Source of the DNA: Candidatus Latescibacterota bacterium
GTDB lineage: Bacteria > Latescibacterota > UBA2968 > GCA-2709665
Length of the DNA stretch: 64,000 nucleotides
Assembly: GCA_963662665.2 (NCBI GenBank)
Contig: CAXXJS010000061.1
Coordinates: forward strand, 64,001 to 128,000
Reading direction: 5' to 3'
Shown: piece by piece, positions 11,708 through 34,804 of the stretch
Numbering within the stretch: position 1 is the stretch's first letter
Layout: every line of letters starts with the position of its first letter
Notes under the pieces: generated by a model
Told to the model about the DNA's origin: nothing
Seen by the model: only the letters and a program-made list of their open reading frames with translations
Databases searched by the model: none
Program-made: the position numbers and the translations under genes

Positions 11708-11792
11708 CATGCCTCCGATGCCAGTGGGATCTTCGTAGGGTCTTGCCGGCGCCAGAAACGTCATTCGAATGGAGCGAACGTTGATCACGCAC

Positions 11793-14663: not shown

Positions 14664-14712
14664 TCCGGGCGGGAGGAAGATCGAAGACTGAGAGTAGGTT
14701 TCAAGAGATGGA

Positions 14713-15090: not shown

Positions 15091-15194
15091 CATTCAGCCC
15101 GCGGAACCGGGCGCCGAGATTCCGACTTGCGAAATGACCAACGCATTCGGCGAGTACGAAATTCCGGCATTGACATTTTCGACCGACTGACCGA

Positions 15195-16036
15195 ATGCTG
15201 AAATTCCACCTCAAGATTGCCTGGCGACATCTGAAAAGACACAAGGTGGTTTCAATCCTGAATATCTCAGGGATGGCCGTCGGTATCGCTGCTGTATTTC
15301 TGATCGCAATCTACGTGCAGAACGAACTCAGCTATGACCGTTTTCACAAGAATGCCGAACGGATATTTCGTCTGTCGGTACGCCAGAAATTCGACAACGG
15401 TGAACGCATCTGGCATCAGTCCGCATGGTTTATGGGTCCGCGCCTGTTGGAAGAATATCCCTATATCCTCTTGGCATTTTCCTCGTCGAAAGCGGTCCCG
15501 GCATATTGGCAAGAATCCATCCGGAACGCGTAGAAGACGCCGTCAGCTGGATTCGTCAGACGTGGTCCAGAGTTGCACCGCAGACGGCATTCTCATCAAA
15601 TAGCGGATTCCTGACCGATCGGTTTGAACGATTGAACGCAAAGGAACATGCTTTGTACAGGATTGTCGTCATCTGCGTCTGCATCACGCTGTTGTTGGCC
15701 GGAATGGGTCTGGCGGGATTCGTCAAGTCGACGGTTGAACGGGACACGAAGCATATTGGCGTTCGTCGAGTTCTCGGGGCGTCGGGATGGCGTATTGTGG
15801 CGATGTACGTGAGGAAGTTTATTTTTGTAGGACTCCTGGCCGGCGTCCTGGCGTGGCCTGTCGCGTATTTTTTTATGTCCCGGTGGCTGCAGGATTTCTC
15901 CTATAGGATTCAGATTAGTGCGGATGTGTTCGTTTATTCGACGTTGGTTACTTTATTGATAACAGCCTTGATTGTAGTGTGCCAATCCTACCAGGCTGCC
16001 GCGATGAGTCCTGTCAACGCTATTCGTGACGAGTAG
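15195..16036 (+). pseudogene. FtsX/MacB-type ABC permease with a large internal deletion
   Basis: N-terminal KIAWRHL...ELSYDRFH joined out of frame to C-terminal IGVRRVLGAS...WLQDFSYRI...PVNAIRDE near 15460. Confidence 0.85.
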
Positions 16037-16168
16037 TGTAGAAATCACATACGGTGAGCGCGACAGTCTCGTTATCGGCTGAATATCAATATCTTACGTG
16101 ACGGATAACCTTCCGGGAAAGCCGAAAACCGTCGCTGAAGCGAATTCCCCAAGTCAGGAAAAACGCCA

Positions 16169-16831
16169 ATGTCATTCAGAATTGCGGACGATCAGGACGT
16201 CGATTATCGAGCGCTTGTCCGGGCGGCCTATGACCGCTGTGCGATGGAGTATGCACGGCGACGGCGCGCCACGGCCGGGCCGGAGCTCAACCTGATCACG
16301 GAGCGGCTGCCACCGGGTTCCAGTGTGCTTGACGTCGGCTGCGGCGCTGGCATTCCGGTCGCGCGCCACCTGGCAGAGACTTTTGACGTCACGGGAATCG
16401 ATATCTCTTCGAGCATGATTGCGCTGGCCACGAAAAACGTCCCTTCGGCCAGATTTGTCCACGCCGACGTTGTAGAGACCGAATTCCCCGAGGGTAGCTT
16501 CGATGCAATTGTCAGCTACTACTCTATCTTCCATATCCCCAGACTGGAGCATCGGGAACTACTTCGTCGATTCGCACGGTGGCTTCGGCCCGGTGGCCTC
16601 CTTCTGTTTACCGTTGCCAAAAAAGACGACGGACCTGGATATACCGAAGATGACTTCTTCGGCGAGACCATGTACTGGAGCAATTTCGGTCCCTCGACGT
16701 ACAGGAAGCTACTTGCTGACAGCGGGTTCAGGATCGAACAGGAAGGTATCGCAGGCGCCGGGTTTGCCAGCGTCGATGCGCTGGAAGAGGTTCACCCGTT
16801 ATTCTTCGCTGTCAGAAACGCGCGGGTGTAA
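16169..16831 (+). CDS. Class I SAM methyltransferase
   Basis: VLDVGCGAG, GIDIS, LRPGG. Confidence 0.92.
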   Translation: MSFRIADDQDVDYRALVRAAYDRCAMEYARRRRATAGPELNLITERLPPGSSVLDVGCGAGIPVARHLAETFDVTGIDISSSMIALATKNVPSARFVHADVVETEFPEGSFDAIVSYYSIFHIPRLEHRELLRRFARWLRPGGLLLFTVAKKDDGPGYTEDDFFGETMYWSNFGPSTYRKLLADSGFRIEQEGIAGAGFASVDALEEVHPLFFAVRNARV

Positions 16832-16848
16832 TTTACCTTGATTCGATT

Positions 16849-18823: not shown

Positions 18824-19086
18824 TTCTTCGGGGAAGTAAAACCGAATAAATGCAAGTAGATAACGGCGATTTAACTTCTGATTACCAGGATACACCAGGT
18901 CACCGGACGTGAACTGAAAGAATGTCCTTTTTTACGACCGTTTCACCCCGTTTCAGGGCTTTTCGTCTCGTTGCCGAGTTGCTGTTTTTTTCGAATTGGG
19001 GTTAAGACCTGTCCAACGCCTCTTTACTGACATCCTGTCCGGGGCGAGCGCACTTGAAAAGCAATACCTGAAGAGAGGTCCTGCCT

Positions 19087-19920
19087 GTGGATCTTGACCT
19101 GGATCGTCTGAAGGCGATATTGAATCAGGAACACTCCTACTACAGCTCAACGCCGGCGAAGTACCGCACTGATTCAGACATTGCGCCGCGGGCAAGTGAA
19201 ATAATCGTTTCGCAGTTTCGCCCGAAGATGAGAGTTCTGGATATTGGCTGCGGGAACGGCGGGACCCTTTTGCAGAATGCCAATCGCTTTGACGCGGCCC
19301 TGGGAGTAGACAACGACCCGAAACACTTCGAACTGGCTGAAGAAATCCGGATCGCCAGGGACGTGCAGAACGTGGAGTTCAGGCTTCTCGATTTCCTGGC
19401 CGAACGTAAGGCCCTGGAACCGGAGTCGTTCGACTTCGTCTATTCCGAACGTTCGTCGATCGGATATGACAGTTTCGGCGTCCAGGCTGCTCTCCGGGTC
19501 CTGAAGCCGGGCGGTCTCATCTTCTGTGAGTTGATCGGCGAGTTGCACCATCAGGAGGTGCGCGAAGTCTTCGGCGATCATCCGCGGTTATCCCAAACGA
19601 TCACCGTTCAGGACCAGATACGTGTTGCAATGGAAAGGAACGGCGTTGGGATTCGGTTTGCCGCCGACGTCGTTGAGAAACGGATCTATCCTGACGTGTA
19701 CGAATGGCTTCAGTTCCAATGTTCCATCTGGGCCTGGGGCGGAGGATCGCTTCCCCGGCATGATGACCCTCGCCTAAAGCTGTTCGCTAAACGCAACACG
19801 ACCTCGTCCGGTGAGATCGAGACAACACACCACGTCGCCTGGGTAGGGGCGTCAGGCTCCCCGAGAATCCGTATCCGGAACGCGCTCATTGAGGAGACCA
19901 TTTCATGGCGAAGTTCATAG
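19087..19920 (+). CDS. Class I SAM methyltransferase (natural stop may be at 19892)
   Basis: VLDIGCGNG, LKPGG; possible 1-nt loss in the G-run at 19846-19849. Confidence 0.85.
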   Translation: MDLDLDRLKAILNQEHSYYSSTPAKYRTDSDIAPRASEIIVSQFRPKMRVLDIGCGNGGTLLQNANRFDAALGVDNDPKHFELAEEIRIARDVQNVEFRLLDFLAERKALEPESFDFVYSERSSIGYDSFGVQAALRVLKPGGLIFCELIGELHHQEVREVFGDHPRLSQTITVQDQIRVAMERNGVGIRFAADVVEKRIYPDVYEWLQFQCSIWAWGGGSLPRHDDPRLKLFAKRNTTSSGEIETTHHVAWVGASGSPRIRIRNALIEETISWRSS

Positions 19921-20585
19921 GCATCAGCGAATGTGAATCTGCTTCGGGCGCGGCGGTTGTGATCGACGTAATGCGGGCATATACCGTTGCCGCGTGGGCG
20001 ATGCACATGGGCGCGTCGCGTATGATTCTGGTTGACGACCTTGAAGAAGCCCTGAAACTCAAGTCGCGGCTTCCTGGATCCCTGGCGTTGAAGGATGGTG
20101 CGCCGGCAGAGGGATTCGATCTGTATAATTCACCCGCGGACCTGTTGGACGCGGACATCCTTGGCAAGACCATCGTGCAGCGGACAACGGCCGGGACGAT
20201 TGGCGCGGTTGCCGTTCGCCATTGCAAACCACTGATCTGCACGGGATTCGTCTGCGCATCGGCTGTGGCCCGGAGAATACGCGATCTGGCGCCCGATGAA
20301 CTGACCTATGTGGTGACGGGCGAAGACGGAACGGCCGAGGAGGATCTCGCGTGCGCTGAATATATCGATGCGCTCGTTCGAGATCCCCTGGCTGATCCGG
20401 CCCCGTACATCCAGAGAGCTTCAGAGTCCAAAGCGGCGATCGATATCCTTCAGGCAGCGGCGGAGGGCTACCCGGGTATAAACCCACGAGACGTCGAAAT
20501 GTGCATGGATGTCAACCGTTTCAGCTTTACGCTTGAGGCTTCGATGGAAGGCGGACTTCTCGTCCTGGGGAAACATCAAGCATAG
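19905..20585 (+). CDS. comB: 2-phosphosulfolactate phosphatase family protein
   Basis: AVVIDVMRA, NSP, TTAGT, EEDLACA motifs. Confidence 0.85.
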   Translation: MAKFIGISECESASGAAVVIDVMRAYTVAAWAMHMGASRMILVDDLEEALKLKSRLPGSLALKDGAPAEGFDLYNSPADLLDADILGKTIVQRTTAGTIGAVAVRHCKPLICTGFVCASAVARRIRDLAPDELTYVVTGEDGTAEEDLACAEYIDALVRDPLADPAPYIQRASESKAAIDILQAAAEGYPGINPRDVEMCMDVNRFSFTLEASMEGGLLVLGKHQA

Positions 20586-20726
20586 ATTCTTTTATCCCAA
20601 TGACTTAGATCGCTTCTTATTGCAACCCATCACCTTTCCGCATGGTACGTGACGGGTGTGCGGACGGGCCGGCCCGGAGGTAATCCGCGCTGCAACGTCA
20701 CCCTGATCGTTTGAGAGAGAAACCCT

Positions 20727-21536
20727 GTGGACGCGTCGAAGATCACCTTTGTCAGCGATCGGGATGGGACCTTCGATCTCTTCGTAATGAACCCGGACGG
20801 GAGCAATCAGAAGAATATTACCCGTACCGCCTGGGAGGAGGATCATCCGCGATGGTCGCCCGATGGCAAATGTATCGCGTACTGCGACCGGCGCCATGGA
20901 AAAGGGGAGATCTACCTGATCGATGCAGATGGGAGCCGACCGAGACGACTGACCCGCAATTCGGCGCCGGATCTTCGTCCGCACTGGTCACCGGACGGGC
21001 AGACGATCATCTTTACGACCGATCGAGACGATAACGTCGAAATCTACGCGATGAACCGCAACGGATCCAACCAGAGGAACCTGACCGATCATCCCGCGCG
21101 GGAACTCGAGTCAACGTACTCTCCCGACGGCTCTCAGATCGCGTTTACCACGGACCGTGACGGAAGATCGCAAATCTACGTGATGAACCCGGATGGCAGC
21201 GGACAGCGACGTCTACACGTGTCACACGGCGACGACGACGATCCGGCCTGGTCGCCGGACGGCATGTGGATTGCCTTCAAATCGGACCGCGACGGTGACA
21301 CGCAGGTATACGTCATGAGGGCGGACGGGTCCGACGCCAGATGTCTCACCAACCTTGAAAAGGGCGCTGGAGAAACCTCCTGGTCTCCAACCGGTCGGCA
21401 GATCGCATTTGCAGCCAACAGAGACGGCCGTCAGCAGATCTACCGAATCGATTTCGACGGCGGGAACCTGATCAACCTCTCCAATAGCCCGGCCAATGAT
21501 TTCGCGCCCGATTGGGGGCCGGAGATCGGGCAGTGA
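20727..21536 (+). CDS. TolB-like PD40 beta-propeller protein
   Basis: Repeated WSPDG..IAF.SDRDG..IY.M..DG. Confidence 0.9.
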   Translation: MDASKITFVSDRDGTFDLFVMNPDGSNQKNITRTAWEEDHPRWSPDGKCIAYCDRRHGKGEIYLIDADGSRPRRLTRNSAPDLRPHWSPDGQTIIFTTDRDDNVEIYAMNRNGSNQRNLTDHPARELESTYSPDGSQIAFTTDRDGRSQIYVMNPDGSGQRRLHVSHGDDDDPAWSPDGMWIAFKSDRDGDTQVYVMRADGSDARCLTNLEKGAGETSWSPTGRQIAFAANRDGRQQIYRIDFDGGNLINLSNSPANDFAPDWGPEIGQ

Positions 21537-21613
21537 GTATTCAGGATTTCTTATTCAGTGCCGGGTACGGCCGCGCCACCCCGGAGATTTGCAAAGAATG
21601 ACGGAGGTATACA

Positions 21614-21985
21614 ATGCGATTTAATGGGATTTGTATCGTTTCAGACAATGTGCCTCGATTATGCGCTTTCTATAGAGCGATATTGAAACTCGAACCTGAA
21701 GAAGCGAATATTTTCGAGATAATCCCGACGGAGGGAGCGGAATTGTCAGTCTACTCCTCGGAACGCACGGAGAAAACAGCGCCTGGATGCCTGGAGGGAT
21801 CCGGAAACGGCAGGTATACCATCGAGTTCGAGGTGGAAGACGTCGACCGGGAATTCGAACGCCTGGCGGCCCTGAATGTCGAGATTGTCAAACCGCCCAC
21901 AACCCAGCCGTGGGGACGCCGGTCGGTCTGGTTTCGCGATCCGGACCGCAACATCGTCAACTTCTACGCCAATGTTCAGGTATAG
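21614..21985 (+). CDS. VOC/glyoxalase family protein
   Basis: FEVEDVD...QPWGRRSVWFRDPD. Confidence 0.9.
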   Translation: MRFNGICIVSDNVPRLCAFYRAILKLEPEEANIFEIIPTEGAELSVYSSERTEKTAPGCLEGSGNGRYTIEFEVEDVDREFERLAALNVEIVKPPTTQPWGRRSVWFRDPDRNIVNFYANVQV

Positions 21986-22051
21986 AATGGATGTGAGAGA
22001 CGCAAACCAAGCGGATCAGGTTTGCAAAGTCTTACGGTAATGGGGGGCCGA

Positions 22052-22870
22052 ATGGATCGAATTGCCGCATATTACGGCAAAAAGAGCGAAAGCCGGCGCC
22101 TCCTGAGCGGCCGAGGCGAACTGGAATTCGTCCGGACGAAGCGGATTATAGACCAGTATGTGCCGAACGAATCCGGACTGTCGATCGCAGACGTCGGCGG
22201 AGGTACCGGTCCGTACGCGTTCTGGCTTGCGGGGAAGGGACACCGGGTTTCACTGTTTGATCTGGCGCATCGACACGTCGATGAGGCTGTGTGGATCAAC
22301 AGAACCGCGCAAAGGCCGCTCACCCGGATTGAAACTGCCGATGTGCGGACACTTGAACTCGAAGCCGGGCAGTATGGCGTCGTACTGCTCCTGGGACCCA
22401 TGTACCATCTCACCAGCGCAATGGAACGCATTCAGGTCCTTCGGAAAGCCGCCGACTGGCTGTCACCCGACGGCGTTGGGTTTGTGGCCTATATTTCACG
22501 GTTTGCATCGATGTTGGATGGTTTCACGCAGCGTCTTTACGATAATCCGGAATTTCTAGATATTGTGAGGCAGGACCTCGAAACGGGCGTTCACCGACCC
22601 AACAGGGACAATACGAGATACTTTACCGATGCGTATTTCCACCATCCGGATGAGATCGAGCGGGAAGCCGGGAAGGCAAATCTACAGGTCGTGGACCTCG
22701 TCGCCGTAGAGGGAATTGCGTGGATGTGGCAGAATTTCGACGAGATGTGGGCGGACCCGCGAGAACGTGCCATCATGCTCGAGATGATCGACCGCTCGGA
22801 CCGGGACCGCTCTCTCATGGGCGCAAGCAGCCACATTCTTTTGGTTTTCAAAAAGCGCGGCGTTGCATAA
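22052..22870 (+). CDS. Class I SAM methyltransferase
   Basis: IADVGGGTGPY, LLGPMYHL. Confidence 0.9.
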   Translation: MDRIAAYYGKKSESRRLLSGRGELEFVRTKRIIDQYVPNESGLSIADVGGGTGPYAFWLAGKGHRVSLFDLAHRHVDEAVWINRTAQRPLTRIETADVRTLELEAGQYGVVLLLGPMYHLTSAMERIQVLRKAADWLSPDGVGFVAYISRFASMLDGFTQRLYDNPEFLDIVRQDLETGVHRPNRDNTRYFTDAYFHHPDEIEREAGKANLQVVDLVAVEGIAWMWQNFDEMWADPRERAIMLEMIDRSDRDRSLMGASSHILLVFKKRGVA

Positions 22871-22930
22871 CAACACGAATCTTGCCTCACCGCTTTCGAC
22901 TGTTTGTTCAGGTGGGCAACCTCGCGACGC

Positions 22931-23105
22931 CTTCGACGAACTCATGGCAGCGCCTGCGAACCTTCGAACGGCTCAGGCACTGCAGACTCAGGGATCGGCT
23001 CGGCTTCTGCGAGTCCCGCTCAAGGGGAGAGTGATACGGGCCGTCAAACGGGCTTGCGCGCTGACCTCCGTCAATATAGTTGCGGCTGAGCAGAAGAAGC
23101 CCCGT
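22931..23105 (+). repeat. Composite intergenic repeat, copy 2
   Basis: cggctcggcttctgcga.tccc.ctcaagggg shared with 2786-2945. Confidence 0.7.
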
Positions 23106-23118
23106 CGGGTACAACTCA

Positions 23119-23940
23119 ATGAAGGAATTACCCCAGGGAAGGAAGAGCAGGATCGAGGTCCTTTCGGACGGCAGCGGGGTCAGGAAGACGTACAATGAAA
23201 ACGGATCCGCGGCGGAGAAGTATCGGCGGGAGGTCGGGTTCTACACTCACTATGCCGGATCCAACCTGATTCCGGGACTCATCGGATGCGCGCAAGATAA
23301 GCACATCACTGTCGAGAGAATCGAAGGCCGGAGACTTGCAGACCTGCTGCCCCTCACGTGCGAGGAGATGACGTCGCTTGCGGAAGACTATATTCGGAAA
23401 TTGGCGGAACTTTTCGCGGTTTCAACCGGCGTAGATTGCAGGACCAGGGAAACGTATTACAATGGGCTGGGCGCGGAGGATAACCGTGCATTGCTGCTTG
23501 AACGTCTCGATCGGCTGATTGAATTGTACGATGGAAATCCAATCATTGCCGATCTTCGCGGCTCAGTTTCCAGGATACAGCGTGATCAGGGACTCCTGAT
23601 CAAGCTCGACTGGAATGCTGAAAACGTCTTCCTCCTTGATGGCAGGATCCACAAATTCATCGACTTCGAGCAGGCCTTCATCGGTTCGAAAGCAATCCTG
23701 GCCGGAGTTCTGCTTCACAATCCGATCTGGCCGGCTGCCCGGATCTTCCGTGGGTTGAAGGATGGCGGATTTATCAAATCTGGTGTCAGAGATTTCCGGA
23801 AATATATCTGCTACGGTTTCTCGGCAGTTCTCGTGGATTCGATCCGGAGACGAGGCGCATTATGGGAATCGGAACGACTCGAGTCCGCATTCGAGAGACA
23901 CGTGACGGCCCGCTATAGTGAGATTGCAAAAGGAATGTAG
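23119..23940 (+). CDS. Protein kinase-like/APH-fold protein
   Basis: REVGFY, DWNAENV catalytic-like loop, FIDFE. Confidence 0.65.
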   Translation: MKELPQGRKSRIEVLSDGSGVRKTYNENGSAAEKYRREVGFYTHYAGSNLIPGLIGCAQDKHITVERIEGRRLADLLPLTCEEMTSLAEDYIRKLAELFAVSTGVDCRTRETYYNGLGAEDNRALLLERLDRLIELYDGNPIIADLRGSVSRIQRDQGLLIKLDWNAENVFLLDGRIHKFIDFEQAFIGSKAILAGVLLHNPIWPAARIFRGLKDGGFIKSGVRDFRKYICYGFSAVLVDSIRRRGALWESERLESAFERHVTARYSEIAKGM

Positions 23941-23985
23941 AAGCGAGCGAACGGTCCGCCTGCACAAATCAATGGGGTTCCTGGA

Positions 23986-24462
23986 ATGCGAACGTACACG
24001 CATGCTTCGGACGGGTACACTTGTCCTTTCTGCCTGGTCGTGAAGGGAATCGAGAACGAACACGTCTGGACGAAACAGCAGGACGTCGTGTTTCGTGATG
24101 GTCACGTCACGGCTTTCATCTCTTCTGCGTGGTGGCCCGGGAATCCCGGGCATGTTCTCGTCATTCCCAATGAACACATTGAAAACGTCTACACAATGCC
24201 AACCCGCTTGCTGGCCAGAATCCAGGAAGTCGCCAGAGAGGTCTCTATCGGATTCAAAGAAAATTACGAATGCGACGGGGTCTCATCGCGCCAGCACAAT
24301 GAACCTGCGGGAAACCAGGATGTGTGGCACTACCACCTGCATGTCTTCCCACGATGGCAAGGCGACCGACTTTATCTCGAACGCCGGAGATCCACGAGTC
24401 CGGAAGCGCGAAGACCCTATGCCGAGCCCCTGCGAGCGTGGCTGAATGCCAGGCTGGGATAG
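23986..24462 (+). CDS. HIT family hydrolase
   Basis: CPFC, PGHVLVIP, HYHLH. Confidence 0.93.
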   Translation: MRTYTHASDGYTCPFCLVVKGIENEHVWTKQQDVVFRDGHVTAFISSAWWPGNPGHVLVIPNEHIENVYTMPTRLLARIQEVAREVSIGFKENYECDGVSSRQHNEPAGNQDVWHYHLHVFPRWQGDRLYLERRRSTSPEARRPYAEPLRAWLNARLG

Positions 24463-24589
24463 GTTAGAGCGCAGAGAGTCAAAGGTCCATGACAGGAATC
24501 CGGGGCTGTTGCGCAGGAAATAACACACCGGCGTATTGTCTCGGATGCCTTACGCGAAGGAGCGATACCTGGTTCAAGGGCATGAAAGG

Positions 24590-24616
24590 GTGGAGCAGAC
24601 ATTCCTGTCTGCTCAC
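24590..24616 (+). repeat. REP-like palindrome (gtggagcagacattcctgtctgc family)
   Basis: gagcagaca-ttcc-tgtctgctc; related copies at 36504 and 36664. Confidence 0.7.
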
Positions 24617-24766
24617 ATAACTCAATTCGAGACCTCGGTGTCCTGTGTCTCGGTACCCCAAAACGGGCCGCCGCCTGGCACGCAGGAAACGAACGGGACT
24701 GACTATCGGATCACCATTCGCCCCGCTGACGCGAACCCCTGCGACAAACGAAAGGACCGATCAACC

Positions 24767-26107
24767 ATGTTTCGAATACAAATGAAAATCGCGCCGATGT
24801 TGCTTGCAGTATTGATACCATGCTCTTGGGCTTCAGCCGACGAATGGCCGCAATGGCGCGGACCGGAGAGGGACGGCGTATGGCGTGAAACCGGGATTAT
24901 CGAAAAGTTCGACGGGCCGGACATCCCGATCCGCTGGCGAGTGCCCATCGGCAGCGGCTACAGCGGCCCGAGTGTCGTGGGCGGGCGCGTCTACATTACT
25001 GACAGGCTTGCGAAACCGAAACAGGTTGAACGGGTCCAATGTTTCGCATGGGAAACGGGCGAACTGATCTGGTCCTACACGTACGATTGCGAGTACCGAA
25101 TCGGCTACGTTGCGGGTCCCCGCGCGACGGTTACCGTGCATAACGGCCTCGCTTACGCCCTCGGGGCGACGGGACATCTCCACTGCTTCGATGCGGCGAC
25201 GGGCGAACTGAAGTGGAATAGAGACCTGAACGCTGAATACAATATTGCGATGCCAACGTGGGGTATCGCTAGCGCGCCCATCGTTGAAGGCTCGAACGTG
25301 GTCGTCCAGATTGGCGGAACGCCCGGAGCGTGTATCGTCGCTTTCGACAGAGAAACGGGAGCCGAGAAATGGAAGGCCCTTGATGACAAAGCATCTTACT
25401 CCGCCCCGATTGTGATTACGCAGGGCAATGCGCGCGTCCTGGTCTCTCGGACAGCCGAGAGCATCGTCGGTCTCAACCCGAAGACGGGCGGTGTGTACTG
25501 GCGCCATCCCTTTCCGCCGAATCGCATGGAGATCGGAATCGCATCCCCCGTCCTCTATCGTAACGAGTTGTTTTTCACAGACTTCTTTGATGGGTCCTTG
25601 CTACTTAAACTGAATCCAAGAAAGCCGGAGATGCAATTCGGGTGGCACCGTAAGGGAGAGAGTGAAAGAAACACGGATGCGCTGCATTCAACGATGTCGA
25701 CTCCGGTCCGACTTGGAGATTATATCTACGGCGTGGACAGTTACGGGGAACTCCGCTGTCTGGATGCCCGCAACGGCGATCGGATCTGGGAAGACCTCAC
25801 CGCGGTTCCCAAAGCCCGCTGGAGCAATATCCATTTTATCAGAAACGGCGACAGGGTCTGGATGTTCAACGAGCGGGGTGAACTGCTGATCACCACGCTT
25901 TCGCCGGACGGGCTGAACATCATCAGTCGCGCGAAACTGATCGAGCCCACACGCGACCAGTTGAACCGCAGAGGTGGCGTCACGTGGGCGCATCCCGGTT
26001 TCGCCTATAAACACGTGTTCGTGCGAAATGACGAGGAACTGGTCTGCGCCAGTCTGGCGCAAAGCGAGGATAAGGATGACCGGGAATCTTCCGGAAACGA
26101 ACCTTGA
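24767..26107 (+). CDS. Secreted PQQ-like beta-propeller protein
   Basis: Signal peptide; DEWPQWRGP.RDG; repeated C.DA.TG..W blades. Confidence 0.9.
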   Translation: MFRIQMKIAPMLLAVLIPCSWASADEWPQWRGPERDGVWRETGIIEKFDGPDIPIRWRVPIGSGYSGPSVVGGRVYITDRLAKPKQVERVQCFAWETGELIWSYTYDCEYRIGYVAGPRATVTVHNGLAYALGATGHLHCFDAATGELKWNRDLNAEYNIAMPTWGIASAPIVEGSNVVVQIGGTPGACIVAFDRETGAEKWKALDDKASYSAPIVITQGNARVLVSRTAESIVGLNPKTGGVYWRHPFPPNRMEIGIASPVLYRNELFFTDFFDGSLLLKLNPRKPEMQFGWHRKGESERNTDALHSTMSTPVRLGDYIYGVDSYGELRCLDARNGDRIWEDLTAVPKARWSNIHFIRNGDRVWMFNERGELLITTLSPDGLNIISRAKLIEPTRDQLNRRGGVTWAHPGFAYKHVFVRNDEELVCASLAQSEDKDDRESSGNEP

Positions 26108-26295
26108 TACATTATTCTTCCGGGACGTAAAATCGAATATAGGCAAGTGGATAAAGGCGATTTGACGGCTGCCTACCAGGATACACCAGGTCACTGGACG
26201 CGAACTGAAAAAACGTCCTTTTTGCCGACCGTTGCGCTCCGTTTCAGGGGTTTTCGTCGCGTTGCCGAGTTGCTGTTTTTTCGAATTGGGACGAA
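26099..26295 (+). mobile_element. MITE copy 2 (degenerate ends)
   Basis: aaccttgata...taccaggatacaccaggtcac...cgaattggg; supplies the TGA of the upstream gene. Confidence 0.8.
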
Positions 26296-26319
26296 GATCT
26301 GATTCGTATTGCCGTATCT

Positions 26320-26342
26320 GTTCGCAAATGCCGTAGTTAGAT
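26320..26342 (+). other. Right end (R') of a truncated attC, or an attI-like crossover site
   Basis: GTTAGATgaaatgaa matches 14/15 nt of the reverse complement of ttcacttcATCTAAC at 29201-29215. Confidence 0.75.
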
Positions 26343-26419
26343 GAAATGAAAAAAATAAAGATCTACACAGATAAATTGCCAGAAGAACACCATTCTATGA
26401 ACGAACAGGTTTATGGGTT

Positions 26420-27082
26420 ATGTATGAACTTCTAGCGAAGAATATAACCGCCGTATTCGCCCTTGGAGGAGTTTTGTTGGGCTCAATGTTCACCTTCTTT
26501 GCAAATTCAAGATTAAAAGAGAAGGAGTTGCAACTTCGGCTACGGGAAAAGGTGCTGGATCGGCGAATCGAAGCCCATGAGGCAATTTTTAAGCTGGTTG
26601 CTCCAATGAGACATATGAGGTCGTTGGAGTATCAGGAGTCTGAATCAGAACTTGCCCGAACGCCACAGTTCTTCATGAGTCCTGAGGAATTTTACTCTTG
26701 GCATATTCAGCATTTAGAAGTGGCTGCGACCTATTCTGCGTGGCTAACAAAGCCTGTAAGCCGTGAACTCAATTTTATACAAGACTATACGCTAAACCTA
26801 TCTATGCTTATCGGGCCAGCCCCTGCCAATCTATTTCCTGAGATTGGTCGTATCATTCGGTCAGACTTTATCGATATGGCGCACCAACTAGAGAAAATTG
26901 CATTCGATTTTTTTGAGAAGGACCTAAGTAAGATGACATTTGGTGATCCTGACGAGCATCATAAATATAAAAAAGATGAAACGTTAGAAAGGTTAAACTT
27001 AACCAAACTATATCAAGAATGGGCTACAATAGCCGAAATGATCCAGTCGAATACAGAGTCTTCTATCCTGACCTATTCATGA
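26420..27082 (+). CDS. Hypothetical protein with an N-terminal TM helix; last codons replaced by IS1380
   Basis: AT-rich ORF; removing the IS restores ...TESSITK*. Confidence 0.8.
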   Translation: MYELLAKNITAVFALGGVLLGSMFTFFANSRLKEKELQLRLREKVLDRRIEAHEAIFKLVAPMRHMRSLEYQESESELARTPQFFMSPEEFYSWHIQHLEVAATYSAWLTKPVSRELNFIQDYTLNLSMLIGPAPANLFPEIGRIIRSDFIDMAHQLEKIAFDFFEKDLSKMTFGDPDEHHKYKKDETLERLNLTKLYQEWATIAEMIQSNTESSILTYS

Positions 27083-28764
27083 ATCGTCAGGGATTGCAGA
27101 TTCGTGCAGCAGAAGCAGCTTTCGAGTGAGTCTAAGAACGCAGGAGAAAGCTGGCTGTGCGGAACTGGCGTTTTCAAGCGATTTCAGGGTGTATTTTTGT
27201 AGCAGGGTTGCGTGGAGGCGTCAGGATGACCTTGTTGTGACTGCCAAGAGCACAGACTTCTCCATGGCTTTTGGTGGTAGCAATCAAGACGTGAAGGCGG
27301 CCTGTTCCAGATGGAAACGTTATGGCATGGCGGTTCCCAGATTGTAGAGCATGGTTCGATAGAGGTGTTTGAGTGGAAACGCCGTTGGCAGATGGAACGT
27401 GATTTTGGTTTTCAGTTCACAAACGCGCCCGGCGACTTTCAAGATGCGGTTTTGCAGCGTATTAAACTGGGCGTTCGTCCACGTGGTGCCGCGCAACCCG
27501 ATATGGGCCAGGGCGTGCACCAACACATAGGCGGCGCTGTGGAGAAAGAGCCGGAAGTGATTGGCGTGGAAGGTGTGGCAAGAGGTGCGATCGGAATGCA
27601 GAAAGGTCTTGTGATTCTTGATGAAGTTTTCCATCCTGCCGCGTGAGCAATAAGCGGTTTTGTAGATGAATGACGGTTGTGCGCCGTTCAGGTTGGTGAC
27701 CACGAATCGGATATTGTGACCTTGCGGGGTGACTTCTGCCTTGCAGATGATGCGGCGTGGGGAAGACCAGCTGCCGGCCTGATAGTCCCAACAGCGATAC
27801 AGGCGCACAGGTTTTCCCCCATCGGCATACAGCGCTTTGGCCTGGTCCATCAAGGGCTGTGCCAACCGCAGCAGCACCGCGTTTCCGCCTTGTCCGAGGA
27901 TAAAAAACACATCGTTTTCGTCACACATCGTGTGCACTTCCGGACACGAAAAGTGTGAATCGCCACGCAACAGGATCTTGACATCGGGCCATGCTTTACG
28001 CAGGTAGGCGATCACCCGTTTGAGAATCGACACGATCTCTTTGCCCGTGGGTCGGCGGCCCGGACGCAAGACCGTCGTGATCAACTTGCCGGTTTGCCCT
28101 TCATAGATATGCAGGGGTTGGTAGCAATAGCCCTTGAAATACGCATTGAATAACGACAACTGCTGGGATCCATACACCTTGTCTTCCGTGTCATCGATAT
28201 CCAACAGAATGGCTTCAGGGGGGTGCTTATACGAGGCGATAAACGCATCGGCAAAGGCCTTCGCGATACGATATAAGTCACCTCTGGTGATCCGGTTCTC
28301 GAACCGACTCATCGTGGGTTGACTGGCCAGGTTGGCACCGGTGACCGGCAACCGATCGCAGGCCGCCTTGAAGCCGGGGTCACTACGCAACGCATTGCAG
28401 TCGTTCGCATCCTCATACCCACACGCCATCTGAAAGACACGCTGAGTCAGCAGGTCCACCGACGGGTGATCCACGTAACTTGGATGCCGACGATCTGTTA
28501 TCGCCTCGACGATCCGACACAAAATGCCGATTCTGGATTCCACCTCGCGAAGCAGCATCGCCCCGGTGTCGCTGGTCAGCATGCCCCCGTCGAAGGTGGC
28601 TTCTACCCGTTTGCCAGAAACACTTGCGAAAGACATCCTTTGTTGTTTATCTTGACCTGCCACGGTAGTTTCCTCCCGGTTCATTGTTATCAGGTTATTC
28701 TCGTAACCATAATATAATACAATGACTTGGGTAAGGAAACTACCTTTTTTGTGAATTATTCAGA
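27067..28764 (-). mobile_element. IS1380 family insertion sequence
   Basis: Imperfect TIRs cctgacctattca / tgaattattcaga; 4-bp duplication CTAT at 27063-27066 and 28765-28768. Confidence 0.88.
27320..28684 (-). CDS. tnp: IS1380 family transposase
   Basis: FDGG.LTSD.G, GYEDAND, LASQPTMSRFEN, LRGDS, RGRMENFIK. Confidence 0.95.
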   Translation of the reverse strand: MNREETTVAGQDKQQRMSFASVSGKRVEATFDGGMLTSDTGAMLLREVESRIGILCRIVEAITDRRHPSYVDHPSVDLLTQRVFQMACGYEDANDCNALRSDPGFKAACDRLPVTGANLASQPTMSRFENRITRGDLYRIAKAFADAFIASYKHPPEAILLDIDDTEDKVYGSQQLSLFNAYFKGYCYQPLHIYEGQTGKLITTVLRPGRRPTGKEIVSILKRVIAYLRKAWPDVKILLRGDSHFSCPEVHTMCDENDVFFILGQGGNAVLLRLAQPLMDQAKALYADGGKPVRLYRCWDYQAGSWSSPRRIICKAEVTPQGHNIRFVVTNLNGAQPSFIYKTAYCSRGRMENFIKNHKTFLHSDRTSCHTFHANHFRLFLHSAAYVLVHALAHIGLRGTTWTNAQFNTLQNRILKVAGRVCELKTKITFHLPTAFPLKHLYRTMLYNLGTAMP

Positions 28765-28808
28765 CTATAACCAAATAATGGCAATTCCGTAAATATGGAG
28801 AAAATACA

Positions 28809-29174
28809 ATGAATTATGAATGGGAACGAGCATCAGAAAGAGGCCAAAAAGGAGTCGGATATGTGGAGGTATACAACACCACTGCTAAAGGCCATCGCAT
28901 TAGTGCTGTAATCAGCTTTCTCCCTCAAATAACAGGCCGTTCCAATCAGAGGCAAGTTAATGTATGTCTGTTTTTTGAAGGTAAAAAAGTGGAATTAACC
29001 GATGGCTTTTTTCACTGGATATATGACGATATTGGAGATATCGTTCAGGAGCAAGAAAGTGAATATTTCAATAGTGACTCTGAAGCGTTGGAGTATATGG
29101 TAACTCAAACTCTGATAGTAGACAGAATGCCTCAACTTGATTTGGTATCAAATGGTGATTACGCAATAGGCTAA
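28809..29174 (+). CDS. Hypothetical cassette protein
   Basis: RBS ggag; AT-rich; followed by an attC. Confidence 0.75.
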   Translation: MNYEWERASERGQKGVGYVEVYNTTAKGHRISAVISFLPQITGRSNQRQVNVCLFFEGKKVELTDGFFHWIYDDIGDIVQEQESEYFNSDSEALEYMVTQTLIVDRMPQLDLVSNGDYAIG

Positions 29175-29208
29175 TAATTTTGTGATATAAGGATGAAGAC
29201 TTCACTTC

Positions 29209-29298
29209 ATCTAACACAGCATTTTGCGCTGCGGCGTATACGCGCCTTGGGCTACGCCAACCCGCTGCGCGGGTTCGCAAATCGTGAAACCGTTATAT
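29209..29298 (+). other. Integron attC site (intact)
   Basis: ATCTAAC...GTTATAT, 90 bp; atttt-gcg/cgcaaat L-box pairing; central hairpins. Confidence 0.88.
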
Positions 29299-29820
29299 GT
29301 CATGCCAGAATCTTCTTGAGTCTAGAATTCAATGCGACTAGTACTCGTCCGCCACGGACAAGGCAAAGACCAGCTGACCGAGACGAACTCCGGTGAGCGC
29401 ACTTGCTCAGGTCTCACGGACTTGGGCAGGGAGCAAGTTTACGCGCTCGCGACACATCTTCGAGAGTCAGGTGAATTCTCCGATTGTCAGACGTTACTCA
29501 GCAGCACTATTGCGCGAGCGCGGCAGACCGCCAAGGTATTGTTGGATGTCTTGCCGGCACAATGCGTAACCGAGGATCCAGATCTATGTGAGCTGCGAAT
29601 GGGCCAAGCCGAGGGTCTCACCACCTCCGAGATCCAGACAAAGTATGGCGACGCAACGCCTCCGGGCGCGGAAACTTTCCAAGAATTGTTTGACAGAGCA
29701 CATTCAACGTTGTTGTCCTACTCGCGGCGATTCAACGGGCAGACAGTAATGGCAGTGACACATGGCGGATTCATCGTCGGGTCAACGATTAGGCTTCTTT
29801 CAGGCCCCGAGACCAAAGTC

Positions 29821-31246
29821 GGGCAAGTACTATTTTCAGTTGAAAAAGGAGAGGCGTTTAGTCAGCGGCGTAGGCCTCTTGAGAGTCATGATCAAGGTTG
29901 AGATGTTTGCGTAGGGCAAGTCTGAGTGTGGGAAGGAATCGGTATCCTTTGATTCTCCGCAAACGGGGCTGTATATCCAACAGCGCGGCTGCCAACCACC
30001 GATATCGCTGATCGGAGTTGTTCCATCGCTTTACGTTCCGTGTGCGCTGTGCGACCATGGCGTTGAGTGATTCGATACAGTTGGTGGTGCGGAACGACTG
30101 TTTGAGGTGCGGCATGAGTCCAAGGCGATGCAGGGTGAGGGTTTCTTCGAGCCCTTCCTCAAGGCTGTTCAGTGCCGATGCATTCATCAGCGCCAGGGAG
30201 GGCTTGAGGGTCTTCAGCGCGGCTTTGGCGTCTGTGTAGGTCTCCTTGTCGTAAGCATCGTGGAGGGCCTTTCTGACCTCGTCCTGCTGTGATTTGGGCA
30301 GATAGGCGATCACATTCTCCCGTTTGTGCCACTGACAGCGTTGGATTGCCACATATCCGGAGAGGGCCTTGGTGAGGGCGGCCCGCAATCCCCTGGAGCC
30401 GTCGATGAGGCACAGCAGCCCCTGTTGATACTGCAATCCGCGATCGATGAGGGCATCCACGAACTGGCGGCACACGCGCTCGTTTTCACTGGCGGCCTGC
30501 ACGAACCCCAGCGGGATCTTGTGCCCGTCGATGGTCACGCCAAGGGCGATGATCATTTCCTGATCGGCAAAGGTCTTGCCATCCATAAACAGACCCACCA
30601 GGTCATCGCCCGCAAGCGACCGTTCTTGAAACTGTCTCAGCTTGGCCGCCGATGCCTTAATGAACCGCCTGGAGACACTCGAAGAAGACAAACCAAACGC
30701 CTCGGGTACCGCTTCTGCGCAACCTTCATACGAACGCGTGGCAATGCCGCTGACGACGCGCAGCAGCAACCCTTCGTCCATGTGTCTGGGGCGCTGCAAG
30801 CGATGATACACCTCGAGAGGAACTTCCTCATTGGCTTCCACGTCGCGAACCCTGGGCACCGCAACAGGCACCTTTTGGTCCGACAGATACACCGATCCCG
30901 ATTGCGCGCCCCACCGGCGATTCGGAGTCTTGCCCGCTTTGCGAGTGTATCTCTGGCCCGTCAACGCGGCGACCTCATTCTGCAGGATTTCTTCCACGGC
31001 GTCCAAGCCCAGCGGGATCAGCGACTGGATCAATGCGACCCGGACGTCAACATCCTCCAGCGCACCTGCGGGGACCGCCCCGGACCTCACACCACCATCT
31101 GTGCTCAACTTGACTTCACGGGACTTCGATGTTACCTTGCGCATCACAGGCTCCTTTCGTATGAGGATACAGTCTTCTTCCACGAGATTACCGTATCCAA
31201 TTTACATCGGAGCCTCTTCTATTTCAACTAAGGTAGGCACACTCCC
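29821..31246 (-). mobile_element. IS256 family insertion sequence
   Basis: Imperfect ~35-bp TIRs starting GGG; 8-bp duplication CCAAAGTC at 29813-29820 and 31247-31254. Confidence 0.92.
29858..31144 (-). CDS. tnp: IS256 family transposase
   Basis: VPRVR, FMDG, IDGSRGL, QRCQWH, TTNCIES. Confidence 0.93.
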   Translation of the reverse strand: MRKVTSKSREVKLSTDGGVRSGAVPAGALEDVDVRVALIQSLIPLGLDAVEEILQNEVAALTGQRYTRKAGKTPNRRWGAQSGSVYLSDQKVPVAVPRVRDVEANEEVPLEVYHRLQRPRHMDEGLLLRVVSGIATRSYEGCAEAVPEAFGLSSSSVSRRFIKASAAKLRQFQERSLAGDDLVGLFMDGKTFADQEMIIALGVTIDGHKIPLGFVQAASENERVCRQFVDALIDRGLQYQQGLLCLIDGSRGLRAALTKALSGYVAIQRCQWHKRENVIAYLPKSQQDEVRKALHDAYDKETYTDAKAALKTLKPSLALMNASALNSLEEGLEETLTLHRLGLMPHLKQSFRTTNCIESLNAMVAQRTRNVKRWNNSDQRYRWLAAALLDIQPRLRRIKGYRFLPTLRLALRKHLNLDHDSQEAYAAD

Positions 31247-31394
31247 CCAAAGTCTGGCTACATCCTTTGAATACAGGCATTACTGAATGGTCTCTGTCTG
31301 ACGGGACCTGGACTCTTGTCCAATACAACAATGCTTACCATTTGCATCGACTGAACGAGAGCAGTTGATCCTCGGTGGGAGGGGAAGGCACGAC

Positions 31395-31476
31395 ATATAA
31401 CACGTCCGTGCCCGGCTTCGGGCATACGCCCGACGCGCAACCGCTTCGCGGTTCTGGCACGGCGAAAACGTTATGT
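31395..31476 (+). other. Integron attC site (intact)
   Basis: ATATAAC...ccgtgcc/ggcacgg...GTTATGT, 82 bp. Confidence 0.92.
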
Positions 31477-31527
31477 GACATGCTCTTTTAGCACGGAAGG
31501 ACTATACACTGCGGAGGATTGGACACC

Positions 31528-32145
31528 ATGAGCGTCGACGTTGAGGACCTGATCAAGGCCAGTAGAGAGGGTGATTGGGATGCAGTTAGACAGATTATAG
31601 ATAGTGGCGTTGACGTTAACGCCCAAGGAAGTCACGGAAATACAGCATTGGTTAGCTCTTTTGCCTTCGGCGATCACTTCGAATTGGTCCGCTATCTCAT
31701 TTCTGTGGGCGCCAACGTGGACTACACAGGAATGGAGGAGGGCAGTCCTTTGATGTTGGCTGCGTTCGGGGGAAAGACCGAGCATATGAAGCTATTTCTG
31801 GAGGCCGGCGCTGACGTGAATTTGGCAATGCCGGGTGGAGGAGAGACTGCACTGCATGATGCGGCCGTGGCGGGTCATTCTGGCGCGGCAAAACTTTTGA
31901 TCGATGCCGGGGCAGATGTAAACAAGGCTGCCAATTCTAACGCAACAACTTCAATGTTCACCGATCGAAAACTTATGGGCGAAACACCTTTGCATTTTGC
32001 AGCGGCGTTTGGTGATGCGGAGATGATTTCGGCGATGCTAGACGCCGGCGCAGATAAATCAATCTCAACCTCGGAGGATAAACTCGCCGTTGACTACGCG
32101 ATGGAGAACAATCGACCTGAAGATATCATCGAAATGATCGCTTAG
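31528..32145 (+). CDS. Ankyrin repeat protein (cassette)
   Basis: GVDVNA, TALH.AA, TPLHFAA repeats; bounded by attCs. Confidence 0.92.
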   Translation: MSVDVEDLIKASREGDWDAVRQIIDSGVDVNAQGSHGNTALVSSFAFGDHFELVRYLISVGANVDYTGMEEGSPLMLAAFGGKTEHMKLFLEAGADVNLAMPGGGETALHDAAVAGHSGAAKLLIDAGADVNKAANSNATTSMFTDRKLMGETPLHFAAAFGDAEMISAMLDAGADKSISTSEDKLAVDYAMENNRPEDIIEMIA

Positions 32146-32173
32146 CGGCCAAGATCAGTGTCCCTCGCACGTC

Positions 32174-32254
32174 ACATAACACGTCCGTGCCCGGCTTCGG
32201 CCTGCGCCCTTCGCCCAAACGCTGCGCGGTTCGGGCACGGCGAAAACGTCAGCT
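32174..32254 (+). other. Integron attC site, R' mutated (GTC)
   Basis: ACATAAC...GTCAGCT, 81 bp; ends near-identical to the attC at 31395. Confidence 0.88.
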
Positions 32255-32269
32255 GCAATTTGCGACAGT

Positions 32270-32304
32270 AAAACTGGCGGCCCCGCAATGGGACCGCCAG
32301 TTTT
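32270..32304. terminator. Bidirectional intrinsic terminator
   Basis: aaaactggcggcccc-gcaa-tgggaccgccagtttt, between convergent genes. Confidence 0.75.
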
Positions 32305-32323
32305 CGATTGCATTCCCTTCTGA

Positions 32324-33788
32324 CTAAGCCGATAAAGGCTCTTCGCTTGTCTTCCCTCCGTGTCTACCAAACAAAGCGATGATCTTGTCGTATTCCTTCT
32401 GCTCATTAGATGTTTCATAGGGATTTGCGGTATATGGCCCATCGGCCCCCTTCTCGAGTGCCCGATCCAAAGGCGTCTTACCCGCTTCGTCCAACGCGTT
32501 CACGTCCGCACCACGCTCTATCAGTAGCTCTATCACGCCTGTGTTGTCGCTGGTGAATGGCATCCTGACAGCCGCGTGAAGTACGGTATGGTCAAACTGA
32601 GGTGCGTCGTTTCGACCTCCGGATCGGACATTGGGGTTTGCGCCATGATCCAATAGAAAGCGGAGGAACGTCACACTTCCGTTGGCCGCTGGGATGAATA
32701 TGGCCTCTCCACGAATCCTGGCTCCGTGTTCCAACAGAATCCGGGCTACATCAACTCTCTCGCCCCAGGCGGCCCACTCCAACGGAGTATGCCCCTTGGA
32801 ATTGTCGTGGGCCAGTTTAGGATCTTTCGCAAGCAAGTCATTGACCCGGTCCGTCATGCCCAGTATGGAAGCAATCGTAATGTCGACGTCTGCTCCCTTA
32901 TCTAACAGCAGTTGCCGGGTTTCCTGACTTCCCGCTTCGATTGCGTAATGTAGCGGTGTCCGGTTCGATCCGCACCGAGCGTTAATTTTCGCTCCTTGTT
33001 CAAGGAGAAACTCAACGGCGCCTGTATGACCGTGCCAAGCTGCTATATGCAGAGGTTTCCAGCCCCGTGCCTGTTCGGGATACGAGTCTGACAGAGGTGC
33101 ATCAGATTCGACCAGGCCCGGGTTGCGGGCAAGGAGAGCTGCGAGCCTGGAGAGATCGCCCGCTTCTGTCGCCCGGATTATCTCCATCGCCTCGTTGGCG
33201 AATCTATCGTATCTGGAAGGCCGATAACCCTCAAGCGTATCATCCACCATCCTTATTATCCTTTCCTCAAGCCGCTTCCGGGACCTCTGTGGCCGTTTAT
33301 TCACCGTTGGCAGAGACAGGTCCAGGAATTCGGCTATTTTCTTTTGAGAGAATTCAGTCAATTAGAACGGCACCGTGGCAATCCGCTTGTGCTCATGGGA
33401 GTCTGGAAAGCCGCGTGAACCAATGCCTGCGTTTCCTGAGTTTCTATCGGTTCCGTCTGGTCCGGACCATCTGTGGAAACGCTCACTGCGCCCCCAAGCG
33501 GCTTGAACGCGAGACGGCGAGTCTGGTTGAGCGGAGTGCCTTCCGTATCACCATTCGCTTAAATCACGCGGGAAACGCGTCGGGCGCTTCAGATTTTCCG
33601 AGATCGGTGTACGCGGTAAGGAACGCATCCTGTGAAACGTCCTGAGCGAGATGAAAATTACCCAAAATCCCGTACGCGCATCCGTAAGCCAGGTCTTGAA
33701 ACCGACGTACCAGACACTCAAACGCGGCAGGCCGCTTCGTCGGGTCACCGTCGGAGGCCGCCCTGACAAGGTCGCAACTTGACTGCAT
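32324..33788 (-). pseudogene. ECF sigma factor-ankyrin repeat fusion; sigma part disrupted; inverted in its cassette
   Basis: Region 2 (AFECLVRRFQDLAYG...AQDVSQDAF), stops and frameshifts, region 4 (SQKKIAEFLDL..TVNKR), then an intact ankyrin ORF at 32324-33361. Confidence 0.85.
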
Positions 33789-33978
33789 ATCATGTTCCTT
33801 CACCAGGGAGAATTTGCTCGAAGGCCTTCGATAGAAGGTGTCATTCAGGTTCGGAAAGGTGACAGAAAACTTGGAGAAAGGCGGATTTCCACCTATCTTT
33901 TTCAGGAGAAATATAACACCGCTCACCCTTTTCTGACATCGGACCTTTTGCGGGGTGCCCCTCCAGGTCGCAAACAGC

Positions 33979-34120
33979 AGCTAACACGAGCACCCACGGC
34001 TTCGGCGCGTTCGCGCCTGCGCTGAAACCTGCCACCCGCGTAGCTGATCTGCAACTATGGGGATCCATTGACTGCATTCGCGATGGGTCGGCAGGTTCGC
34101 CGGTGCCGAGAACGCTACAT
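33979..34120 (+). other. Long attC site, R' mutated (GCT)
   Basis: AGCTAAC...gcacc/ggtgc...aacctgcc/ggcaggtt...GCTACAT, 142 bp. Confidence 0.78.
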
Positions 34121-34146
34121 GAAATGCAAAAAACATTGAGGTTAGC

Positions 34147-34485
34147 GTGGACGTAAAGGCAAAGTTGATAAAGCTCAAGGAGAATTCGGAGGATGGCGTG
34201 GCAGCATGGGCAAGCGCCATCAACGGGCGCAAGGACGAAGCATTGGCTACGTTACGCGACGAAGGAATGAAAGTCGAGTCCTGGTTCCTGCTGACTTTAG
34301 ATGACGGAGTATATCTCCTCTCGTACATGCGATCCGAAGACTTAGAGCGCGCCCATGAGGTCTTCAGGCAGTCGAAACATGAGATTGATACCTTCCACCA
34401 ACAGTTCAAAAAGGATAACTGGGTGCGTGGATCGACGACAGAGTTGGAACTCCTTGTAGATCTCGCGGTAGATGAAGACAAGTGA
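34147..34485 (+). CDS. Small cassette protein (DUF6176-like)
   Basis: EALATLRDEGM.VES.F...SKHEID.FH.QFK; flanked by attCs. Confidence 0.75.
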   Translation: MDVKAKLIKLKENSEDGVAAWASAINGRKDEALATLRDEGMKVESWFLLTLDDGVYLLSYMRSEDLERAHEVFRQSKHEIDTFHQQFKKDNWVRGSTTELELLVDLAVDEDK

Positions 34486-34505
34486 TTGAATTGGTTGGGC
34501 ACATC

Positions 34506-34603
34506 ATGTAACACATCGGTGTTGCGCTTCGGTGCTGATCGCTCGTTGACCTCCGGCAAACCCTCGACATGCTACGGCTTCGCAAACCGTGGAAACGATT
34601 TAT
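34506..34603 (+). other. Degenerate attC site, R' mutated (GAT)
   Basis: ATGTAAC...ttgcgct...ttcgcaaaccgtggaaacGATTTAT, parallel to the attC at 29209. Confidence 0.7.
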
Positions 34604-34804
34604 GAATCGGGAAAGGGAACAGGGCCCGTTCGGTAACTTTGACAAAACAAGAAAGGACGGTCTCAAATGGTGATGGATGCCCGACAAATCTTGACAAAGC
34701 CATTTGAGAGCGAGGATCAAGACGCTGTCCGTAGTCTAATCTTAGCTGTACTTGCCGAACACTGGGAAATCGTAAGCAGCCGCTGCGTAGACGTGTTTTG
34801 AATT

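Follow-up and report, generated by a model that had tools for sequence, protein, structure and literature searches.

We have analysed a stretch of 64,000 nucleotides (hereafter the window; positions 64,001 to 128,000 of contig CAXXJS010000061.1, here C61) from the metagenome-assembled genome (MAG) of a Candidatus Latescibacterota bacterium, an uncultured soil-type organism (G000; 4.86 Mb, 92% complete, 5.4% contamination). Between window positions 26295 (C61:90295) and 34603 lie an attI-like site, five cassettes each with an attC-type site and the stub of a sixth cassette (Table 1), and from the sequence we put at roughly 85% the probability that this segment is an integron-type platform devoid of its recombinase. 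An earlier note on the window had read the segment as five consecutive integron cassettes, and these are borne out, both by the matching of their ends and by the comparison of adjacent sites given below. The relatives used for comparison (G-numbered genomes) are also MAGs labelled Candidatus Latescibacterota.

The ends of the cassettes pair as the note had listed them: 26336 with 29201 (14/15), 29292 with 31392 (10/10), 31470 with 32171 (10/10), 32248 with 33977 (8/9) and 34114 with 34504 (8/9). Taking 15 bases at each end, we compared the 11 outside the TAAC/GTTA core of each R'' with the reverse complement of the 19 candidate R' found on the contig. For all five sites of the window the best partner was the next site upstream (10, 10, 9, 9 and 8 of 11), other partners in those five rows agreeing mostly at 1-6 positions and a few at 7-8. 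The same rule of adjacency holds for sites upstream of the window (C61:25133->26143, 9/11; 26143->26938, 8/11), and it fails there where the detected sites are more than 2 kb apart. This matching is far from chance. Best matches between adjacent sites are the signature of units that were once circles opened between G and TT, and each cassette here has a 5' end derived from its own attC, with the crossover at G|TT.

The sites themselves were searched with two covariance models of our own, a first one made from the five sites of the window and a second one (R2) made from 18 sites. The first contains the five by construction and retrieved nine more genome-wide, all 14 matches lying on the plus strand of C61. 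With R2, run with filters off on 151.5 kb (the window plus 87.5 kb of contig beside it), 18 sites were counted at E<1e-7, all of them on the plus strand, five in the window and 13 upstream; there are also three or four weaker candidates, at C61:40756, 41749 and 60351. Neither model, with filters off, gave any attC in the window beyond the five. Judged by these models, the sites are imperfect palindromes with the R''/L''/L'/R' arrangement of attC, the core RYYYAAC...GTTRRRY and a variable loop, the R' cores of attC3, attC4 and attC5 being the variants GTC, GCT and GAT. In the alignment of the 18 sites, which is fitted to the model and to that extent favours structure, 82.7% of 457 cells are paired (shuffles 67.9 +/- 1.3, with 0/500 as high; slid partners 31-37%), and changes on both sides are seen in 19 of 27 pairs, including all eight of the L-box helix. 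The note had named a different known repeat family as what would refute it; Rfam has no family at the five sites, its single match in the window being a group II intron (16875-17012). A simple motif search with the shared 5' half remained at chance level (9 matches versus 6.35 expected). On balance, the five are attC-type recombination sites.

The left end of cassette 1 is of a different kind. The pairing of 26336 with 29201 claimed in the note stands, the left partner belonging to an attI-like site, that is, a putative cassette entry site, and not to an attC. In seven recombinase loci, from relatives and from G000, conservation runs from the final codons of the gene to CCGTA|GTTA, and the sequences diverge completely beyond; the conserved attI-like site lies ca. 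130 nt past the stop codon, and the point of divergence is sharp at G|TT. There are five copies on the plus strand of C61 (12152-12227, 16197-16272, 29002-29071, 45443-45510 and 90295-90340, the last being window 26295-26340), all at E<=1.3e-9 in nhmmer, the next-best match in the genome having E=0.16. Their left ends match the R'' of the next attC at 14/15, 13/15 and 14/15 positions, and the remaining two, compared by hand, at 13/15 and 9/15. It is on these three grounds, the conservation behind the recombinase gene, the divergence at G|TT and the match to the R'' of the next attC, that we call the site attI-like, and with an attI-like left end the whole find becomes the remnant of a platform. 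No hairpin is formed here: the stretch left of 26336 folds with z +1.30, and its homologues in G011 and G013 are likewise unfolded. A reading of the site at 26320 as the remnant of an attC had been tried with half-site profiles, which gave E=19, and the call was not possible on that basis. Runs of attC-bearing cassettes follow each of the four other attI-like sites, all within C61:12152-53755, and the first two of these sites lie behind stubs of a recombinase gene.

The note was right that the window encodes no tyrosine recombinase, no PF00589 being found by Pfam in its 86 open reading frames (ORFs). Its statement that an integrase is absent holds for the window; on the contig there is a recombinase remnant 78 kb upstream, which is not a canonical IntI. 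PF00589 is matched twice in the genome, each time outside the window, namely by a distant Xer-like protein of 376 aa on contig C10 and by the stub at C61:11832-12023. Aligned with a full-length relative (P0001, 376 aa), G000 retains residues 287-376 at C61:11823-12092 and 344-376 at C61:16039-16137, which makes two stubs of 90 and 33 C-terminal codons, 78 and 74 kb upstream, with an attI-like site behind each. The genome-wide search for intI that the note had proposed recovered the stub on C61 and no IntI above the cut-off of TIGR02249 (265 bits, the criterion used here), the best match reaching 87.6 bits at model positions 242-315 only. The full-length gene of G011 follows the core gene that in G000 stands upstream of the first stub. 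The best solved relative of this recombinase is the Vibrio IntI4 (2a3v; 151.8 bits), and it covers the region of the IntI-specific domain with 27 residues against 69 in IntI4 (ca. 42 fewer), with 41 alignment columns fewer than the canonical IntI of the same bacterial family. The full-length relative scores 214 bits on TIGR02249 in two stretches, skipping positions 175-234. An integrase with the IntI-specific domain, as a complete integron would have, was not found with this array.

Canonical IntI above the cut-off is present in two of 41 related genomes, G017 (same family, 464.5 bits) and G036 (same order), and in none of the same genus; the attC family of this array is carried by 13 of 14 sister genomes. 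The recombinase query fetched 19 loci, of which nine, those at least 79% identical, contain attC matches. All 48 of these matches are on the strand of the recombinase, 38 downstream and 10 upstream. An intact gene in a single frame was seen in one of 13 loci (L034), the others being truncated or frameshifted. The distant homologues (23-52% identity; 10 of the 19 loci) gave no model matches, and three of them have no repeat arrays downstream, so that an association with attC arrays is established for the close subfamily only. With 7,769 of 8,000 scored candidates at E<=1e-30, the protein family as a whole is very large. This IntI-like recombinase is possibly tied to the arrays, by gene neighbourhood only. 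Another arrangement was seen in a sister genus (G020, loci L058-L063), in six copies of a 2.5-kb unit (94-99.6% identity) that encodes a tyrosine recombinase of 283 aa and a transposase of the IS91 family. Every copy stands immediately behind the G of an attI-like site and has an attC-like hairpin of its own at the end, and the two ends of the unit cross-match at 11/13, like those of cassettes.

Comparison with sister species shows which part of the locus varies. The window is colinear with them from 8000 to 26100 (the part searched being 8000-27000), at 78-91% identity. Beyond this block G000 has the attI-like site followed by cassettes 1-5. In G013 cassette 5 comes immediately after the attI-like site, and cassette 4 is elsewhere in the array; in G011 the site is followed by cassette 4 and by 60 bases from the start of cassette 5, where a deletion between two TTGAYAAAGC repeats sets in. 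Both the attI-like site and the cassettes are absent behind the last gene of the colinear block in G007 and G008. The junctions between species fall at the core G (G|TT), and the CT that cassette 5 has after this G, a variant of its own, is kept in both genomes. The cassettes are 92-96% identical between species versus 82-85% for the adjacent core gene, and copies of cassette 4, 92% identical, are found at other positions of the arrays of G011 and G013. A nested series of this kind agrees with cassettes entering stepwise at the attI-like site.

A reading of the whole co-oriented, gene-dense stretch at window 1-29 kb as eroded cassettes was considered and rejected, as the part searched (8000-27000) is conserved across the genus; being colinear there, it is not variable on that time-scale. 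Within this block, at 8459-8484, there is an orphan attC 3' half (nhmmer E=0.022), the sole one that the half-site profiles gave in the window, preceded by an apparent acetyltransferase C-terminal fragment and with a possible 5' half at 8176-8199. The region 8170-8490 looks like a fossil cassette junction inside the conserved block.

Table 1. Features at and around the cassette array (window coordinates). IS, insertion sequence; MITE, miniature inverted-repeat transposable element; R2, score with the second covariance model; z, bottom-strand fold compared with shuffles.
Feature	Positions	Strand	Length	Details
MITE copy	26101..26290	+		190-bp family, ~80 copies genome-wide; 3' tip truncated; abuts attI-like site
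attI-like site (orphan)	26295..26342	+		crossover G26336/T26337; nhmmer E=3.2e-11; no gene beside it
Cassette 1	26337..29292	+	2,956 bp (1,254 bp without IS-A)	ends 14/15
IS-A	27067..28764	-	1,698 bp	transposase ORF 27320-28684, PF13701 520 bits; CTAT 4-bp duplication
attC1	29209..29298	+		R'' ATCTAAC, R' GTTATAT; R2 92.9 bits; z -2.16
Cassette 2	29293..31470	+	744 bp without IS-B	histidine-phosphatase gene 29332-29819 plus 31254-31368, PF00300 95 bits
IS-B	29820..31246	-	1,427 bp	IS256-type, PF00872; CCAAAGT 7-bp duplication; one other identical copy in the genome
attC2	31395..31476	+		R2 82.5 bits; z -4.08
Cassette 3	31471..32248	+	778 bp	ankyrin-repeat ORF 31519-32145; ends 10/10
attC3	32174..32254	+		R' variant GTCAGCT; R2 79.4 bits
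Cassette 4	32249..34114	+	1,866 bp	minus-strand ORFs: ankyrin-repeat 32324-33361, sigma-70 region-2 fragment 33564-33926
attC4	33979..34120	+	142 nt	R' variant GCTACAT; R2 64.5 bits
Cassette 5	34115..34597	+	483 bp	DUF6176 ORF 34147-34485, PF19673 90.5 bits
attC5	34506..34603	+		degenerate R' GATTTAT; R2 72.5 bits
Sixth-cassette remnant	34598..34801	+		44-codon gene start; similarity to G013 ends at 34766

No Pfam family was matched by either ORF of cassette 1 (26420-27082, 220 aa; 28809-29174, 121 aa). IS-A, of which there are 15 other copies in the genome at 98-99.9% identity, replaces the last three codons of the 220-aa ORF, and a form of the cassette without it is present in X8, a run from a third study (joint 27062->28765). 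The histidine-phosphatase gene of cassette 2 is split by IS-B, its reading frame having been derived by hand, and X8 also contains a contig of this cassette without the insertion (joint 29812->31247). The contigs of X2, an independent run, reproduce every non-repeat junction with 0 differences. Two more joints in X8, one at 32239->33982 with a shorter side of 24 letters and one placing cassette 1 behind another attC at a depth of 2.2, are uncertain and were not used as evidence of excision. The gene truncated in the sixth cassette is whole in G013, a 141-aa ORF that we take to be acetyltransferase-like from a motif and not from a family search. A cassette of G010 (L056, G010:C19:83500-87500) shares with cassette 1 its right-hand 535 bp, namely the 121-aa ORF and attC1, at 90% identity; the similarity begins where IS-A ends in G000, and the left part of the G010 cassette is not homologous to cassette 1. 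Just past the co-oriented region, on the minus strand at window 51921-58634, a SNF2-type helicase, two BrxC/BrxD-like ATPase ORFs and an ankyrin-repeat protein may form a defence-type island.

The 190 nt to the left of 26290 had been considered as a giant attC loop, a reading rejected since they are a dispersed MITE. Members of this family have the terminal inverted repeats AACCTTGATTCG...CGAATTGGGGTT and are flanked by (C/T)TA. Three copies on C61 sit 5-38 nt ahead of an attC or attI-like site. A search for a Pc promoter gave one sigma-70-like match, at 26104-26133 and inside the MITE (shuffles 0.7 +/- 0.8). Another copy, at 16820-16833 plus 18848-19010, is interrupted 14 nt inside by the group II intron (16833-18847, plus strand, with a reverse transcriptase ORF at 17296-18666). 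An ORF-less derivative of the intron occurs in nine other copies in the genome, all at the same position of the MITE, so that the intron seems to home into the MITE and not into attC sites. The association of group IIC introns with attC, in which the intron lies in an attC and points against the cassettes, is not seen for the window intron, which lies inside a MITE copy.

How such a platform would have worked can be proposed from its relatives. Cassettes would have been inserted or excised singly at G|TT by a tyrosine recombinase acting in trans, with the folded attC presumably as one of the recombination partners, as in integrons. The enzyme may have been the IntI-like recombinase whose gene precedes the attI-like site in the relatives. 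In G000 this gene is left only as two stubs and the sole other recombinase is distant and Xer-like, so that the array is most likely frozen and decaying. Its erosion would comprise the two recent IS insertions, the MITE that appears to have removed the left part of the attI-like site, the truncation of the sixth cassette, and deletions. The note had offered two descriptions, a CALIN or a portion of a very large array, and we find both apt. The cluster is more than 4 kb from any integrase, the remnants being ca. 74-78 kb off, and it closes a series of five platform remnants along ca. 87 kb of C61. A CALIN (Cury et al. 2016, PMC4889954) is a cluster of attC sites without an integron integrase. 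With at least two attC within 4 kb (spacings here are 0.4-2.2 kb) and no integrase within 4 kb, the array is one; it resembles other CALINs in its five attC at most 2.2 kb apart and in having a decayed recombinase gene on the same replicon, and differs from them in that it opens with its own attI-like site and is one of five tandem platform remnants.

Some observations weigh against this picture of a decayed platform, besides the bias of the fitted alignment already mentioned. Folding of the bottom strands, a check that the note had proposed, came out for two of the five sites: attC1 and attC2 beat their shuffles and attC3-5 do not (z -0.64, -1.23 and -0.13), which makes the evidence for these three weaker. 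No contig bridges the IS copies. The nested series of cassettes among species fits stepwise deletion equally well. Lastly, in a MAG of this completeness and contamination the recombinase gene could be unassembled.

Beyond the array itself, we propose tentatively, and at somewhat less than even odds, that the attC arrays of Latescibacterota are run by an IntI-like recombinase without the I2 insert, with an extra N-terminal domain of ca. 100 residues, encoded by a gene that faces the array and has the attI-like site behind its own 3' end. The arrays could instead have been built by a canonical integron integrase, now lost or on an unassembled contig, the insert-less recombinase being a mere neighbour. 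Such integrases do occur in the same family and the same order (G017 and G036), the assembly is 92% complete, and the I2 helix is described as enabling attC processing where it is discussed in PMC7790495. We nevertheless find this quite unlikely: none of the 15 genomes of the genus, G000 included, has an IntI above the cut-off, yet nearly all the sisters carry the attC family, and among the matches listed none is within 20 kb of the canonical intI of G017, whereas the insert-less recombinase stands at a fixed distance from the attI-like site in seven loci and shares its strand with 48 of 48 attC matches.

It is also conceivable that recombinase and attI-like site together are a mobile module that enters existing arrays, like other attC-targeting elements, and not the resident integrase. 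Five attI-like copies interspersed in one 87-kb region would suit a module of this sort, and so would the loci L036, L041 and L043, where the recombinase or its stub has attC to either side (10 of the 48 matches are upstream), and the related recombinase of G020, whose unit with the IS91-family transposase sits in six copies, each at the G|TT of an attI-like site. That unit, however, belongs to another subfamily and is found downstream and not upstream of the attI-like site, and the first module is at the boundary between core genes and array in G000, in G011 and, by the listed positions, in G013, as a resident integrase would be; we regard the explanation as unlikely. That the repeats might be terminator-like palindromes or repetitive extragenic palindromes placed after genes, and no recombination sites at all, has in its favour their position at the 3' ends of genes and the three of five that fold no better than shuffles. 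It is scarcely credible, being already contradicted by distal bases that match specifically those of the adjacent site and by cassette-sized presence and absence between species with junctions at G|TT; the sites are moreover confined to one strand of one 87-kb region in a genome of 4.86 Mb, and no Rfam family was matched.

The proposal of an insert-less integrase can be set beside known systems. Sedentary chromosomal integrons, for example the superintegron of Vibrio cholerae, share with this locus a long co-oriented chromosomal array of small accessory genes each with an attC (here acetyltransferase, glyoxalase, NUDIX, methyltransferase and ankyrin genes), as well as IS in cassettes. Here, unlike in V. 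cholerae, the attC are thinly spread (18-21 in 87 kb) and varied (the five have a mean column identity of 54%), the attI-like site is present in several copies, and the integrase gene faces the array and has no IntI-specific insert. In integrons of the Treponema denticola type intI is oriented as the cassettes are, and the integrases have the IntI-specific domain. The arrangement is the same here, with the recombinase upstream on the cassette strand and an attI-like site behind its 3' end, but the domain is missing. Xer/dif systems have an Xer-like tyrosine recombinase that acts on short core sites, and some integrating phages use a folded single strand. Xer-dependent integrating elements and Xer/dif modules resemble our case in the Xer-like tyrosine recombinase and the short core sites, whereas the sites here are imperfect hairpins of 81-142 nt with R and L boxes that bound single genes, and not 28-bp dif-like sites; the dif layout of two 11-bp arms and a 6-bp spacer was not found in them.

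In their treatment of an integron-like subgroup of tyrosine recombinases, Smyshlyaev et al. (2021, PMC8138268) describe the insertion as ‘not fully conserved’ and term it essential for integron function. The recombinase discussed here is like that subgroup, being nearest to IntI4 (2a3v) with the insert missing; what differs is that the passage on the subgroup makes no link between insert-less members and attC arrays. Nor did the literature found, as far as search listings mainly tell, link insert-less members to such arrays. The gain of the I2 helix is credited, in the relevant part of an eLife paper of 2020 (PMC7790495), with the recombination of folded attC by integrases, and its authors describe natural intermediates as missing. 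Latescibacterota do not figure in the list of integron-bearing phyla of a 2021 review (PMC8618304), and a literature search on Latescibacter and integrons gave, by titles and the beginnings of abstracts, nothing on integrons in the phylum.

The window contains a real, degenerate integron-type array in Latescibacterota, a CALIN by definition, possibly with a non-canonical integrase. Should the link with the recombinase fail, an ordinary decayed array remains. We are dealing with a whole lineage with attC arrays and a turnover of cassettes from species to species, in which the only recombinase physically tied to the arrays has no I2 insert. If it does run them, the enzyme would be a natural intermediate between Xer and IntI or a case of secondary loss, and the recombination of single-stranded attC would not be strictly dependent on I2. 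Were this enzyme the integrase, the origin of integrons would become directly testable with a natural protein and natural sites.

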